The translations under genes and the position numbers were made by a program. Positions 3,001 through 63,924 of a stretch of DNA of 64,000 nucleotides are shown here, in pieces. Source of the stretch: a virus. The notes beneath the pieces were generated by a model. It saw nothing but the letters and a program-made list of their open reading frames with translations, did not search any database and was not told the DNA's origin. The stretch's first letter is position 1; each line of letters opens with the position of its first letter. Location of the stretch: UHGV virus genome UHGV-0020019. One strand, written 5' to 3'.

Positions 3001-6000
3001 ATTGTTCTTAATGTCCATGAAGTTGAATGTATCTATATTACCTAATGAGTCTTCAAGAGTAATAGGAACAGCCTGCATCACTACAGGAGTACCATTATCT
3101 AATCTGGTCTGTACTGTAGTAGGTCTGCCTACCTGAGTTACTTTGTATGATTCAGAATTAATGAATCTATAACTCTTAGTTCTCCATTCATATCCCCAGT
3201 TAGCATAACCTGTCATAGGCTCACCTACATGTGGAATAGGAGAGTCATAACCCAAAAGTTCTCTTACCTGATTATTGTAAGCAGTTACAGCCTTGTTGGT
3301 ATAAGCTAGGATTCTAAAGTAATTAGGATTCTGCTTCAAGCCTTTAACATACTTATCAATAACTTCATTGATAGCATCTTGATGCTGAGGAGCAATATAT
3401 GCAACACCCTCACCTTTACTATTGAATGATGATATCCTAGACAAAGGTTCTCCATTACGGATAGCTGTAGCTTCCTTAAGGATAGCATTGTCATCTGTTC
3501 TCTCTACTTGGGTAAGACGGATGACTTTACCTTCACCATTTCTAAAGACCTTAGAGATTTTATCCTCATTGACAGGAGCCAGCTGAGCTTCATCACCTAC
3601 ATAGATAATCTTAAGATCCATTTTCTTGGCAATATCATTAAGGATTTTATAATTCTCCTCATTGATCATAGAAGCTTCATCGATAATAATGGTAGTTCCT
3701 GGCATGATGTCTACATCCTTCAAGACATTTACCAAGTTTCTAGCATTATAAGATTTGCTTGAATCTACTTCTACATTGATACCAAACACCTTATTTAATG
3801 TAGATGCCTTGAAGCCAGCCTTAGATACTCTGTCATTAAGTACTGCTGCTGCCTTATTGGTTGTAGCACAGAACATCACAGGTCTATTCTGCTTCTGTCC
3901 TTTCTTAGCAATCATCTCCATAAGAGAAGTCTTACCAGTACCGGCATAGCCACTAAGAGTCATAGATGTCTCATTGGACTTCATGAATCTATCCATCTCA
4001 TTGAGAGCATCTATCTGCTGAGCATTTGGCTTGAATGGAGCTTTGACAGTAGTACCATCTGCAAATGTAAAGTCTTGAGGCACAGCTTTTCCACTGTGTT
4101 TATTATCTTCTGGTACATTGTTTACCAAATCATAATCAGCACTTTCCTGCTCAATAAGAGACAGCTCATCCTTAAGTTCCTTGCCAGATATAGTACTAAC
4201 AAACTCACCTGTCTTTGCATAATCTGCAATGTTGTTGTTTGTCTTAGAGAATGTTCCTATATTATCTGTTGCTGACTTAATCTGATTAGGATTATGAACA
4301 ACATATATAGTTTGATTCTCTTTCTTATTATCATCAAAACCAGTAAGGACTATACCATTTTCAGAACCCTTTCTTTTAGATGACTTATTTACTATCTCTC
4401 TATAAGAAGTTCCTTGCTTGTGCAAGTCTTCCTTAGTACCATGAAACACTTCTAAGTTTTTTATGTTCAAGAACAATGATAACTTGGCTTTTCTACTAGT
4501 TAAGAAATTATCCTCACTACCAGGCACAACATTATCTGTGGTAAAGAATATGGCGTTCTTAGTACCACCTGTCTTTGAGAAGAAATTATCGAACTCTGTG
4601 CTAAACTCAGACAGATTTTCATTATCAGTATAATGATAGACAACCAAAGGTTCTCCATTTTCATCTACTACTTTAGAAACATCTGAAGAATATGCTGGAG
4701 TGTAATTAGCCTCAATATCTGATGATTTAATATTACCACTTAATTTAGCTGTATCTTTAATAACAGATATTTGAGAATCATTAGAATCCCCATAATTTTT
4801 CAACAAAGAGTCTTCTGTAATTTCAATTAATCTAGGAGAATACTCTTTTGTAATGACAGCTTCCTTATATTCTTTATTACCTACATTGAATGTATTTCCA
4901 TTGGTAGAAATAAATTCAGTTTGAGGCATATCATATATATAAGGTTTACCATCAATACTCAATGCTGCTACATAGTGAGTTATGATTTTTCCTGTAACAG
5001 GACTTTTGGCATTTATTATATTAGTATGGGCTTCAATCCCATATCTATCCTTTAAGAATGCTTGTATTCTTTGTGCTGTATATTGACATATTCCATTTAA
5101 AGGATTTGACCTGTTAACTAAAGTTCCTACTTTTATAACATTAGATACGCCTATACTATTAAAACCAAATGGATCTTCTTTTGTAGTTTCTTTTCTTTCT
5201 ACTGGATGAGACAATATTTCATTAGAAGTAGAATAGGTATTTCCCAAAGGATCTTTTTTAAGTATATCTACATACTCTCCTGTTCTTTCCCAAGTAGATA
5301 AGCCATATTGTCTAGGAGGTGTATATTCCTTTTCCCAATCACCAAACCACTCTTTAAAGGCTTTAGTTCTAACTTGAAGCCACTGTCTTTCACTAAGATT
5401 AGAGTTCTTACCATTAGGTGCCTTCATAAAGGTACCGTTAGCAATAGCTTTGCTCTTTAAAGCTTGTAACTCTTCATTGTACACCTCTCTATTAAAGTCA
5501 TGAACAATTTCCTTCTTTAGTTCATCATCAGACAGTGTTCTGAAATCCCATTCCTTCTCATTATACTCCTTTCTCAAAGGATTCTTGATACCATTATATC
5601 TCATATAGGTATCAATATCAAAGGCATCAAGAGCTTTCTCCAAGGCATTCATTGACCTCTGATAGTATGTATTGGAGGTATGAAGACTAAGAAGAGTCTT
5701 GAAGGCATCAAGTACTCTAGACCAGAAAGACTTCTTATCCTTATTCTGCTTGTCAATCTCTTGAATCTTACTTCTAAAGACAGGATTACCAAGTTCTGCA
5801 ACAAATTCAAAGACATCAACAATGCCTCTTTCACCCTTTAAGATAGGATTGGTCTTGAGGTCTTGGTAGAGAGAATTAACTTCTGTACGGAACTCCTGCA
5901 AAGCTTCAGGTCTCTTCCAATTCTCAGTCTGATTGGAGAGAGCATACATAGAGATAGAATGAAGTACTTCATGAAGAATGATAGAAGCCTTCATATTGTT

Positions 6001-38045: not shown

Positions 38046-38606
38046 AGTTATTTTTAATTAAAGAGTTTCTTTCTTTTCAGGGTAGGGTAGTAGCTTATGA
38101 AATTCTCAAATACTACTTTACCTGTAGTCTTGTTGAAGGTACATCTTGCCATCAACTGTGCATTTGTTTTAAGGTGCTGTTCCATATTAATCTTGATTTT
38201 CTAATTTATAATTTATTTGTGCTCCTATAGGAATGATAGCAACGCCACATGGAATTTTGAGATGATAGTTTTTATCATCTATTTTGGTTATTGTTGCTTT
38301 CTCTAAACCTCTATTAGGATATTTTGTGACTATATTGTCACCTACTTTAAATATTGCTTCCATGGGTCTTTTTCTCCTGAAGTTTAGTATAGTTTTCTAC
38401 TAATTTATCCATGATAGGATTAAGTTTCTTTCTAAATGTCAGGAAGCATTTACTTCCTTTCCTTAGTTCATCCTTAATGTCTAAGGTTGCTTGTTCTTCT
38501 ACTGTCATAATGATTTTAATTTAAATGAATAGAGAAAAACAGAAGAGCAATAACCAATCGTCATTACTCTCTGTTTAACCCATTTCAACCCTTTAAATAA
38601 TAATAG

Positions 38607-38678
38607 TGAACCTTGAAGGATTTGAACCTACAGTCTTCTAATTAGAATCAGCTGCTTTAATCATTAAGCTAAAAGTTC
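38607..38678 (-). tRNA. tRNA-like gene with an aberrant anticodon arm; if the 7-nt loop is UUCUAAU the anticodon would be CUA (amber-reading). Could be a pseudo-tRNA.
   Basis: Acceptor GAACTTT/AAGGTTC, D-arm GCTT..AAGC and T-arm GTAGG-TTCAAAT-CCTTC fold well. Anticodon region GCTGA-TTCTAAT-TAGAA pairs poorly (TCTAATTAGA is a palindrome). Confidence 0.35.
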
Positions 38679-52030: not shown

Positions 52031-52697
52031 TACCTTCAATGGGATTTGAACCCATACAAGCATTTCTGCTCATCAGATTTTCCTACCACACTTACTTTTA
52101 CATAAGCAGACTCTTTGGCTCTATGCTTTTTGTATATTTCTCCAAGAAGAGTTAGGCTTTACGAATTACTTTCATTCGCCTGTTATATTTAACGATATAA
52201 CCTGTTATTACTCACCTTTTAGTCTTTGTGGTCTGGACTATTTTATTACCTTATTAAGAATCTTGCAAGTAAGTATATATGGAGTTTACTCTAACTCTAA
52301 TAGTAGTCTACTCTTCTCACTTCTACGAATCTTGTAAGTTTAATTTAAAACATATATACTATTCTTAACTTAGGTATCTCCTCTATAGTCTCTACACATT
52401 TATGAACCTTCCTCCTGCACTTAATGGGTAGCTACTCCCATCATTATTTTACATTGCGTATTATACCAGTTCAATTTAGCTCGTCATCACCAAAGTCTGT
52501 GTCACCACAAACGAGGCTTCTGTCGCAAGTTAAAGACTGTGCTATAAGATGTCGTTCCTTATCACAGTCGCCATTATTTGACTTTAACTTGTTTAATTAG
52601 GGAGATTCTACTCTTATGATTTCTCATAAGGCACTCAAATTCTTCATTGCTGAAGTTTTAATAAGTCTGACGTGTCTACCAATTCCACCATGAAGGC
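52031..52697 (-). tRNA. Split tRNA-Leu (anticodon TAA, class II with long variable arm). Exon 1 is 52663..52697, exon 2 is 52031..52081, separated by an intron at the canonical U34/A35 site.
   Basis: Exon 1 (minus strand): GCCTTCA TG GTG GAATTGGTAGA CAC G TCAGA CTT. Exon 2: AAAA TCTGA TGAGCAGAAATGCTTG TATGGG-TTCAAAT-CCCAT TGAAGGT A. Joined, they give a near-textbook bacterial tRNA-Leu(UAA): anticodon stem TCAGA/TCTGA, loop CUUAAAA, acceptor GCCTTCA/TGAAGGT with G1-U72, discriminator A73. Confidence 0.65.
52082..52662 (-). ncRNA. Group I-type intron (~581 nt) interrupting tRNA-Leu(UAA); no ORF of 60 aa or more inside
   Basis: Last exon nucleotide before the intron is U. The intron ends ...GTGTGGTAGG with a terminal G (omega-G) just before exon 2. 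P7-like pairing ACAGACTTTGG / AGAGTCTGC (cf. consensus CAGACUA / UAGUCUG) lies ~50 nt upstream of the 3' splice site. The insertion position matches cyanobacterial and plastid trnL(UAA) introns. Confidence 0.55.
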
Positions 52698-53734: not shown

Positions 53735-53899
53735 ATTATTCTAAGAATATGCTTAACCTGAACTTTAGTAAGATTAGGAAACTTATCTAGTAGCTTTTTC
53801 TTAATAAAATCAAGTCTTATTTTGCTCCTCATATAACAATTTACTTCATAAGCATCTGTTATAAAAGAGAGTAAACTGGTGAGTTGTCTTGAATCCATG

Positions 53900-54427
53900 C
53901 TATTCTTTAATTAAATTAGCTTTTAACTCATTCAATTCAGTAATAGCATCATCAAGAGCATTATGAGCATTATTATTCTCATAGACTTTCCAATCTTTTA
54001 TAATCTCCTTTGCAGTTCTAATATCTCTTGGCTGCCAGAACTTCCAAGGAGTTTCTATATTAAGATACTCACATATATCTTTGATACAGAATAGGTCCAT
54101 AGAGCCTTTAGTCCATACTATAGTGTCTTCTGTATTGAATCTATTAAAGATTTGATATAGCTTATTTACTAACTGCGTATAGTTATAGACAATATTAGTA
54201 GGTGTTTTGCTTACAGGCGTATTTTTCTGTTGCATCCACCAAAGTAAGGTTTCTCCAGTAAAGGTCCTATTATAAGTGTTCCAAACATCAGGCATTACTT
54301 GTATTAGATATGAGTCTAATATATTGAAAGCTTCCTCTGCAATTACTATTCCTACCTGAGTAATTGCAGCATCATTTCTTCTACCTAATGTTTCTATGTC
54401 TATAATAATATGTTTTGCTGTTTTCAT
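53900..54427 (-). CDS. DEDDh (DnaQ-like) 3'-5' exonuclease
   Basis: IIIDIETLG (Exo I motif) and HNALDDAI (Exo III motif); 175 aa. Confidence 0.6.
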   Translation of the reverse strand: MKTAKHIIIDIETLGRRNDAAITQVGIVIAEEAFNILDSYLIQVMPDVWNTYNRTFTGETLLWWMQQKNTPVSKTPTNIVYNYTQLVNKLYQIFNRFNTEDTIVWTKGSMDLFCIKDICEYLNIETPWKFWQPRDIRTAKEIIKDWKVYENNNAHNALDDAITELNELKANLIKE

Positions 54428-63630: not shown

Positions 63631-63924
63631 ATTGCCGCAAATTCTACTTCTCTTTATCCTAACTCTCTGTGTTACAGTAGCTCAGTTGGATTAGAGCAAC
63701 AGCCTTCTAAGCTGTGGGTCTTGGGTTCGAACCCCAACGGAATCACTAAACACATATTTTGCATAATATTTGATAATACCGATAATTGCTTGTTTTTATA
63801 GCAGTTGTCGGTATTTTTTTATTTAGGTAATGATACTATGATTAATAGAAACCTTACACTTCTATTTATATGTAATTGACAGGTAAAATGCAGCCAATGC
63901 CGCAAAATTGCCGCAAATTTTTCA
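63631..63924. repeat. Three copies of GCCGCAAA(A)TT flanking the att tRNA (63633..63643, and tandem at 63899..63920); candidate integrase arm-type sites
   Basis: Read directly. Confidence 0.3.
63672..63746 (+). other. tRNA-Arg(TCT)-like att sequence. D-arm to 3' end are tRNA-like, but the 5' acceptor strand does not pair, so it is a partial or hybrid tRNA rather than a functional gene.
   Basis: D-arm GCTC-AGTTGGATT-AGAGC, anticodon arm ACAGC-CTTCTAA-GCTGT, T-arm TTGGG-TTCGAAC-CCCAA. 5' GTTACAG versus 3' CGGAATC pairs only 4 of 7; no CCA. Confidence 0.45.

Follow-up and report, generated by a model that had tools for sequence, protein, structure and literature searches.

The virus genome UHGV-0020019 carries, on the minus strand of the 64,000-nucleotide (nt) stretch analysed here (the window), a region (52697-52031) that is very probably one class II transfer RNA (tRNA) gene, tRNA-Leu(UAA), split at U34/A35 by a 581-nt IC3-like group I intron without an open reading frame (ORF). 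Exon 1 (52663..52697; 35 nt, GCCTTCATGGTGGAATTGGTAGACACGTCAGACTT) covers tRNA positions 1-34 and ends in ...CAGACUU, with U34 as its last nucleotide, and exon 2 (52031..52081; 51 nt, AAAATCTGATGAGCAGAAATGCTTGTATGGGTTCAAATCCCATTGAAGGTA) runs from A35 to the discriminator A73 and includes the long variable arm. The intron occupies 52082..52662, and its final nucleotide, the omega-G, lies at 52082. When run with its intron option, ARAGORN reports tRNA-Leu(taa) i(36,581), the sole such call in the 64 kb, and the gene spliced in silico is called as an 87-nt class II tRNA-Leu(UAA) with a long variable arm, discriminator A and a 7-bp acceptor stem made of G1.U72 and six Watson-Crick pairs. A first-pass annotation, made from the letters of the sequence, had joined the same two segments into such a tRNA, read the 5' exon as ending in U and the intron in G, and proposed a group I intron at the trnL site; all of this is borne out, the intron type by the U.G pair in P1, the R and S elements, the covariation and the model matches described below.

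Left unspliced, the gene receives no ARAGORN call, and default ARAGORN and the Rfam tRNA model, which detect six or seven tRNAs elsewhere in the window, report nothing at this locus. The joined sequence ACGTCAGACTT^AAAATCTGAT (the caret marks the junction, here and below) is present exactly in uninterrupted tRNA-Leu(UAA) genes of 33 other viral contigs; a close intron-less allele of the window gene was not found among them, the best agreeing at 69/86 positions (<=80% identity). A G stands directly 5' of exon 2 in 27/27 close copies of the intron, and 29 of the 31 compact relatives have G in the corresponding alignment column. For some relatives ARAGORN returns a splice register with the anticodon GAA ('tRNA-Phe'), which was rejected because the U.G pair of P1 sits at U34. 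The four neighbouring tRNAs (Met, Tyr, Asn and Arg-UCU) are all intact by ARAGORN, as had been annotated.

A group I core, with P3-P8 and P4-P6 domains and a P3/P7 pseudoknot, is supported in the family by covariation outside P7. We aligned 31 non-redundant compact relatives and wrote on this alignment (A2) a structure comprising P2, P3, two pairs of P4, P5, P5a, P6, P7 (as a pseudoknot), P8, P8a, P9.0, P9 and P9.1. Standard pairs fill 92.7% of the alignment cells, against 33-40% when the 3' partners are slid by 1-3 columns. Compensatory changes on both sides were found for 41 of the 54 pairs, and the observed value was equalled in 0/500 shuffle controls. The covariance model built from this alignment (R1, whose E-values are rough owing to a shortened calibration) gives two matches in the window, one of 52.7 bits (E 7e-14) at 52640-52334 and one of 45.1 bits (E 1e-11) at 52301-52072, because the P8 insertion breaks the match in two. 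Together these matches span the interval between the tRNA halves, and they are the only ones at E < 0.2 in the window. The split gene is therefore more than a chance observation, because an independent model fills the exact gap between its halves.

All core helices of the window intron are base-paired on direct reading (coordinates on the minus strand throughout). The internal guide sequence UUUGAGUG (52632..52639) pairs through GAGU with exon ACUU to form P1, with U34.G at the splice site, and through UUU with AAA of exon 2 to form P10. The loop of P1 contains a small hairpin, CUUCA-GCAA-UGAAG (52642..52655), at the position that an HNH gene occupies in two long relatives, L030 and L179. P2 (CUUAUGA-GAAA-UCAUAAG, 52611..52631) is closed by a GNRA loop, L2, and is indicated by compensatory changes in relatives, the covariance-model alignment and the minimum free energy (MFE) fold. 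P3 pairs AUCUCC (52601..52606) with GGAGAU (52376..52381), the latter directly after P7 with no P7.1/P7.2; 5/6 of the family's P3 pairs are compensatory, and the covariance model and the MFE fold agree. In P4, CGACA (52521..52525), followed by the joining segment J4/5 GAAG, pairs with UGACG (52482..52486) with one A.A mismatch; this helix appears in the MFE fold, and its innermost pair covaries in the family (A-U/G-C/C-G). The P5/P5a hairpin CC-UC-GUUUGUG-GUGA-CACAGAC-UUU-GG (52490..52516) has 7/7 covarying P5a pairs and is found by both the covariance model and the MFE fold. P6 (UGAAC/GUUCA), which covaries in the family, holds insertion 2 of about 60 nt (52403..52473). P8 (ACC/GGU, then UUAAGAAU/AUUCUUAA) holds insertion 3 of about 100 nt (52248..52375), and both P8 and P8a covary; the internal loop of P8, CCUAAG...UAAGG, may correspond to the 11-nt GAAA-tetraloop receptor, which it resembles. 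P9.0 is formed by CCAC (52228..52231) and GUGG (52086..52089), with U-A replaced by C-G or U.G in the family. P9 (AGACU/AGUCU), which covaries, holds insertion 4 of about 108 nt (52108..52225), and the P9.1 hairpin GCUUAUGUAAAAGUAAG (52091..52107) has 4/4 covarying pairs and is found by the covariance model. Folded alone, the 581 nt reach -134 kcal/mol (z = -3.8) in an MFE fold that gives P2, P3, P4, P5/P5a, P8 and P9.0.

The 5' strand of P7 is the R element GUAGAGACUAU with a bulged A (52385..52395), invariant in 31/31 family members and always complementary to the S element AUAGUCC (52235..52241), which forms the 3' strand and was placed by the family alignment and the covariance model. P7 as assigned here (GAGACUAU/AUAGUCC) would pair intron positions 271-278 with 422-428; its strands match the classical R/S consensus, and their positions also agree with the Rfam Intron_gpI alignment of the compact relative L083. 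A different P7 had been proposed in the first-pass annotation, namely ACAGACU with AGUCUGC, the latter about 50 nt before the 3' splice site. We reject this pairing because both strands are engaged in covariation-backed local helices: ACAGACU is the 3' strand of P5a (intron 162-168), and AGUCUGC is the 3' strand of P9, which lies at intron 551-557, 25-31 nt from the splice site, and pairs locally with AGACU at 438-442.

Several observations count against this reading of the core and of its activity. All seven P7 pairs are invariant in the 31 relatives, so that covariation neither supports nor contradicts P7. The window P4 has the A.A mismatch and a 66-nt hairpin at an unusual place, and in most of the compact relatives only two covarying P4 pairs are definable. 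P10 is missing in many relatives, and its apparent covariation comes from few independent events. The Rfam model RF00028 (Intron_gpI), whose search the first-pass annotation suggested as a check and whose silence it named as a refutation, finds nothing in the window at its gathering score, nor in the 831-nt region when the threshold is relaxed to E <= 10. Folding could be slowed by the four large insertions, or splicing could come to require a protein, and that the window intron splices is our inference. We ascribe the Rfam result to the approximately 330 nt of insertions, as a failure of sensitivity and not as absence of the core. The same model recognizes L083 with 56 bits (gathering score 50), and its alignment puts R, S, P3, P4-P6, P8 and P9 at the same places as the structure written on A2.

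Close copies of the intron are found in other genes. By BLAST, the window intron shares 73-91% identity with a sequence interrupting the DNA primase gene of two complete crAss-like genomes, cr116_1 (MT774389; locus L001, 2428-4019) and IAS virus (NC_049978; L002, 2428-4016), whose database records annotate the primase as two coding sequences each and no intron. In cr116_1, excision of 563 nt at ACTT^...G^AAAA yields a single primase ORF of 342 amino acids (aa), in phase 0 after codon 190. This restored protein is 42% identical (E 7e-80) to the uninterrupted primase of the window (28094-27144, identified with PHROGs), and the alignment is gapless at the junction (LKL^KIYQP in cr116_1, LQLKLYQP in the window). 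The element can therefore be removed precisely at these boundaries in an essential gene, and the primase of cr116_1 and that of IAS virus are each one gene interrupted by an ORF-less member of the family.

Scanning IMG/VR with sequence motifs yielded first 24 close copies and then more than 100 loci. Most of the close copies lie in tRNA-Leu(UAA) genes with several exon sequences, always as ...ACUU^...G^AAAAUC; six lie in primase (primase site UUAAACUU^AAAAUUUA), and two (L004 and L024) in tRNA-Lys(UUU), at CACUU^...G^UUAAUG. The segment just 5' of P2 varies to fit the target exons, as do P1 and P10 of a group I internal guide sequence: it reads UUUGAGUG for the tRNA-Leu junction ACUU^AAA, UUUUGAGUG for the primase junction ACUU^AAAA and UAAGAGUG for the tRNA-Lys junction CACUU^UUA. 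What the tRNA-Leu and primase sites have in common is limited to ACUU^AAAAU, a stretch of 9 nt that has the junction at its centre and fits the guide sequence.

The extra length of the window intron, about 330 nt, consists of four RNA hairpin modules, in P4, P6, P8 and P9, and is not a decayed endonuclease gene. As had been annotated, the intron contains no ORF of at least 60 aa, the largest being 58 aa and antisense. Pfam and PHROGs scans of eight ORFs near the tRNA cluster found no endonuclease, and tblastn found no homologue of the family's HNH protein in the window. Insertion 1, helix X, is a long hairpin (CAAGUUAAAG...CUUUAACUUG; 52526..52591) within the 5' strand of P4, present in the MFE fold and showing compensatory stem changes among relatives. 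It is absent from the compact relatives and from L011, and the P4 module is therefore dispensable. Helix X was itself considered as P4 and ruled out, since L011 is without it and the compact relatives have no counterpart. Two other P4 candidates were rejected, UUGCG/CGCAA as not conserved in IAS virus and CUCGU/ACGAG for a G to A change without compensation.

The modules have their best matches in different copies: the P4 insertion in L021 (tRNA-Leu, 86%), the P6 insertion in IAS virus (primase, 91%), the P8 insertion in L012 (tRNA-Leu, 92%) and the P9 insertion in cr116_1, L014 and L026 (primase, 98-99%). The core segments of the window intron are 86-97% identical to those of cr116_1. Because the P9 module is closer to cr116_1 than the surrounding core, modules are being exchanged between copies in different genes and phages, the route being recombination. 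In ten tRNA-Leu introns (L006-L010, L013, L017-L019 and L022) the P9 insertion holds ATGGCGGAATTGGTATACGGCAG, which resembles the 5' half of a class II tRNA; for Lak phages, too, a tRNA intron with a predicted tRNA inside it has been reported (Devoto et al., bioRxiv 10.1101/356790).

Beyond these close copies, nhmmer and ARAGORN place compact relatives of about 185-300 nt in the anticodon loops of many phage tRNAs. Of 100 viral loci, most hold an intron of the family, with 120 matches at E <= 1e-5 that include introns matched in two pieces; these loci were fetched by 16-23-nt motifs of the window intron and so show many carriers, not a frequency. The first-pass annotation had called intron-split tRNA genes rare in phage arrays, which is not true of gut phages. 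Among bacteria, scanned with one genome for each species, 99 loci were found, nearly all from Bacteroidota, with carriers among Bacteroidales metagenome-assembled genomes, a 3.3-Mb Bacteroidales chromosome, Pedobacter and Dokdonia, and the great majority lie in tRNA-Leu(UAA) at the same site. The family lives both in chromosomal tRNA-Leu(UAA) genes of Bacteroidota and in many gut-phage tRNA genes; a point against the bacterial half of this conclusion is that the bacterial loci are mostly metagenome bins, some of which may be phage contigs. In two long members, L179 on a Bacteroidales chromosome and L030 on a phage contig, the P1 loop houses a gene for an HNH endonuclease of 163-164 aa, and the two proteins are 56% identical. 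They agree with the HNH-encoding intron included in a survey of Bacteroidota tRNA-Leu(UAA) introns (mSystems 2026, PMC13011429). Two viral loci show further features. L034 has, besides a family member at 788-1004, a second and different group I intron at 3532-3757 (+) (Rfam Intron_gpI, 65.5 bits), which places several intron lineages within one phage region. L033, on a 185-kb IMG/VR contig, has a permuted transfer-messenger RNA at 3067-3353 (-) (RF04321, 68 bits) in a dense tRNA array that holds a family intron.

The nearest known system is the trnL(UAA) group I intron of cyanobacteria and plastids, assigned to subgroup IC3 (Xu et al. 1990 and Kuhsel et al. 1990, as cited in PMC3984707 and PMC13011429) and inserted at 34/35 (PMC13011429). 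We fetched cyanobacterial and plastid trnL(UAA) genes from metagenomes by their conserved exon-1 sequence; 42 of the 120 loci are not directly followed by AAAATC, and most of these 42 carry the classical intron. In the comparison that the first-pass annotation had proposed, R1 aligned over all 235 positions to 18/18 trnL introns tested, with 51-97 bits (E 4e-13 to 2e-26) for cyanobacterial introns and 34-56 bits (E 3e-8 to 2e-14) for plastid or AT-rich ones. The window intron shares with the classical intron the gene, the U34/A35 site, the helix order P1-P2-P3-P4-P5-P6-P7-P3'-P8-P7'-P9.0-P9, the lack of P7.1/P7.2 and the GAAA loop on P2. In IC3 terms, P2 and P9.0 are present and P2.1, P5abc and P7.1/7.2 are not. 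In contrast to the classical intron, which measures about 225-365 nt (copies with the 3' exon within 420 nt), the window intron has 581 nt and four RNA modules, resides in a crAss-like phage, is similar in the core only, is unseen by RF00028 and has sister copies in other genes. We call it IC3-like by architecture and by covariance-model cross-matches, which fit common descent and repeated insertion alike.

The surveyed tRNA-Leu introns of Bacteroidota belong to the same family by sequence motif and covariance model and occupy the same site. They are either compact (about 210-290 nt) or HNH-carrying (about 650-750 nt), whereas the window copy is long, ORF-less and phage-borne, and its tRNA-Leu exon sequence differs from theirs. 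The primase introns of crAss-like phages share with it 73-91% identity, the guide sequence and the ACUU^AAAA junction; they interrupt a messenger RNA (mRNA) and the window intron a tRNA. Group I introns in protein genes of crAss-like phages were found via endonuclease ORFs (Yutin et al. 2021, PMC7886860), a search to which ORF-less copies are therefore invisible. The tRNA introns of Lak Prevotella megaphages were called 'enigmatic' and not classed as group I (Devoto et al., bioRxiv 10.1101/356790). A Lak-B1 tRNA intron (L244; MK250020.1, 411704-412715) is a strong member of the same family (178.6 bits, E 3e-50); it is compact (245 nt), and the spliced tRNA has the anticodon CUA.

Among structurally characterized introns, the IC3 intron of the Azoarcus pre-tRNA-Ile is known from crystal and electron cryo-microscopy structures (PMC3984707, PMC13168695). 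Like that of the window, it is a small bacterial-type intron in a tRNA anticodon loop, but it differs in tRNA and site, measures about 205 nt and has no insertions. The Azoarcus intron has, as the window intron appears to have, a GAAA loop L2 and a receptor of the CCUAAG...UAUGG type in P8. The T4 td, nrdB and sunY introns and those of Twort (IA2) are self-splicing group I introns that, like the window intron, reside in phages; unlike it, they interrupt protein genes, possess P7.1/P7.2 and in many cases encode an endonuclease. Since P3' follows P7 directly, the window intron is not of the IA type. According to a 2014 review, no phage intron had by that time been found outside protein genes, although phages have many tRNA genes (PMC3984707). 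Earlier work covers group I introns at position 34/35 of tRNA-Leu(UAA), those in protein genes of crAss-like phages, and Lak tRNA introns left unclassified. Our full-text searches, whose coverage of the literature was incomplete, returned nothing on tRNA genes of crAss-like phages that are split by group I introns, and no paper on this intron family in the tRNA genes of phages.

With this architecture, the precursor would be transcribed together with the neighbouring tRNAs and the intron would fold into its P3-P9 core, while its guide sequence would bind exon ACUU, including the U34.G wobble, and the leading As of exon 2. Free guanosine would then attack after U34, and the 3'-OH of U34 would attack after the terminal G, joining the exons into the anticodon loop CUUAAAA. 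We infer guanosine attack and exon ligation from the known chemistry of group I introns, and hence that the Leu-UAA tRNA would depend on splicing.

As for spread, the sub-lineage of the window intron has also colonized primase mRNA and tRNA-Lys(UUU), most likely by guide-directed reverse splicing, which is favoured because the sites share only 8-9 nt pairing with the guide sequence. The broader proposal is tentative: an ORF-less lineage may spread at the RNA level from tRNA-Leu(UAA) to primase mRNA and tRNA-Lys(UUU), with its modules as shuffled cassettes, in a wider family that hides CUA tRNAs. Weighing against it, the argument for reverse splicing is one from site similarity, to which homing by a trans-acting endonuclease and recombination at short homologies offer alternatives. 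The intron might splice and yet have reached its sites at the DNA level, which we consider rather unlikely; illegitimate recombination could have moved it, or an endonuclease acting in trans, such as the family's HNH enzyme provided by the host or by a phage infecting the same cell. The HNH genes in the P1 loops of L179 and L030 fit such a route, and an HNH enzyme in trans could explain the spread among tRNA-Leu genes; so do the module mosaicism, which shows frequent DNA recombination among copies, and a free-standing 'intron-encoded endonuclease' gene in cr116_1, 1.8 kb from the primase intron. However, the shared 9 nt, ACUU^AAAAU, are shorter than typical homing endonuclease sites, the guide sequence of the tRNA-Lys copies has changed to fit the new exons, and no endonuclease gene was found in the intron or nearby in the window.

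A second alternative, quite improbable in our judgement, is that the intron has decayed, leaving a tRNA-Leu(UAA) pseudogene or a gene with protein-dependent splicing, and that the insertions are junk that disables the ribozyme. Its length would fit this, 581 nt against the 184-300 nt typical of tRNA group I introns, as would the hairpin within P4 and the missing Rfam match. In addition, the bacterial tRNA introns longer than 500 bp in the 2026 survey all encode an endonuclease (PMC13011429), and the window intron encodes none. Yet its core strands are all intact and fit the family consensus, and about 20 long relatives with varied exons and modules retain the core, the guide sequence, the omega-G and intact exons. 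The insertion stems show compensatory changes, and the primase copies in complete phage genomes must be removed for replication. That the element is not a group I intron at all, but a group II intron, an insertion sequence (IS) or miniature inverted-repeat transposable element (MITE), an archaeal-type bulge-helix-bulge (BHB) intron or the space between two separate tRNA halves, is extremely improbable, for despite the failure of Rfam and of default tRNA finders at the locus, the hallmarks of these elements (GUGYG...AY ends, domain V, terminal inverted repeats, a target duplication, a BHB motif) were not found, and the core is backed by covariation and by cross-matches to Rfam-recognized and cyanobacterial group I introns.

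Family introns also split tRNA genes with a CUA anticodon. These include, besides Lak-B1, the crAss-like phage cr115_1 (L245; NC_055898.1, 30169-31154), where some 270 nt separate it from the gene for the large terminase subunit, and the IMG/VR loci L036, L037, L052, L054, L057, L060, L084 and L088. Splicing by the group I rule would leave the anticodon loop CUCUAAA, with the amber-suppressor anticodon CUA, and in these copies AGGAG serves as the guide sequence, paired to exon CUCU^U. Such intron-split genes are invisible to standard tRNA finders. Lak phages are described as using an alternative genetic code (Devoto et al., bioRxiv 10.1101/356790), and recoded phages without a detected suppressor tRNA are a stated problem (PMC7886860). 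Since the family hides CUA tRNAs in Lak-B1 and cr115_1, splicing could gate the switch of genetic code in recoded phages. The window itself gave no signal of stop-codon recoding.

Some other features of the window were recorded. ARAGORN reports at 38606-38678 (-) a tRNA that it leaves without a definite type ('Arg|Pyl (ct)'), with a 6-nt anticodon loop UUCUAA and an Rfam tRNA score of 53 bits. Either an unusual Arg(UCU) tRNA or one of the CUA type might be present here. At 63671-63745 (+), on the strand opposite to the other tRNAs, the Rfam tRNA model matches with 53.6 bits, and ARAGORN makes no call. About 1 kb upstream of the tRNA cluster, a 175-aa ORF (53900-54427, -) contains an Rv2179c-like 3'-5' exoribonuclease domain (Pfam E 8e-24; 'exonuclease' in PHROGs), and a role in RNA processing is conceivable from its place beside the tRNA array. 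A weak R1 match at 53771-53883 (+) (9.4 bits, E 0.23), in which AGUAG...CUUAAUAAA comes after a P2-like GGAAAC hairpin, is antisense to two small ORFs and is probably due to chance.

Together with its relatives, this locus shows that tRNA genes of gut phages commonly contain ordinary group I introns of the IC3 type. Because the locus is missed by ARAGORN at its default settings and by both Rfam models, that for tRNA and Intron_gpI, phage tRNA repertoires are probably under-counted. Intron-split CUA tRNAs may account for some of the recoded phages that lack a detected suppressor tRNA. The occurrence of the same family in tRNA-Leu genes of Bacteroidales and in the tRNA genes of their phages suggests exchange between phage and host. 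The mosaic peripheral modules provide natural material on how group I ribozymes tolerate and use insertions, and one lineage at three sites, with a matching guide sequence each time, offers a rare natural data set for the long-proposed transposition of introns by reverse splicing.

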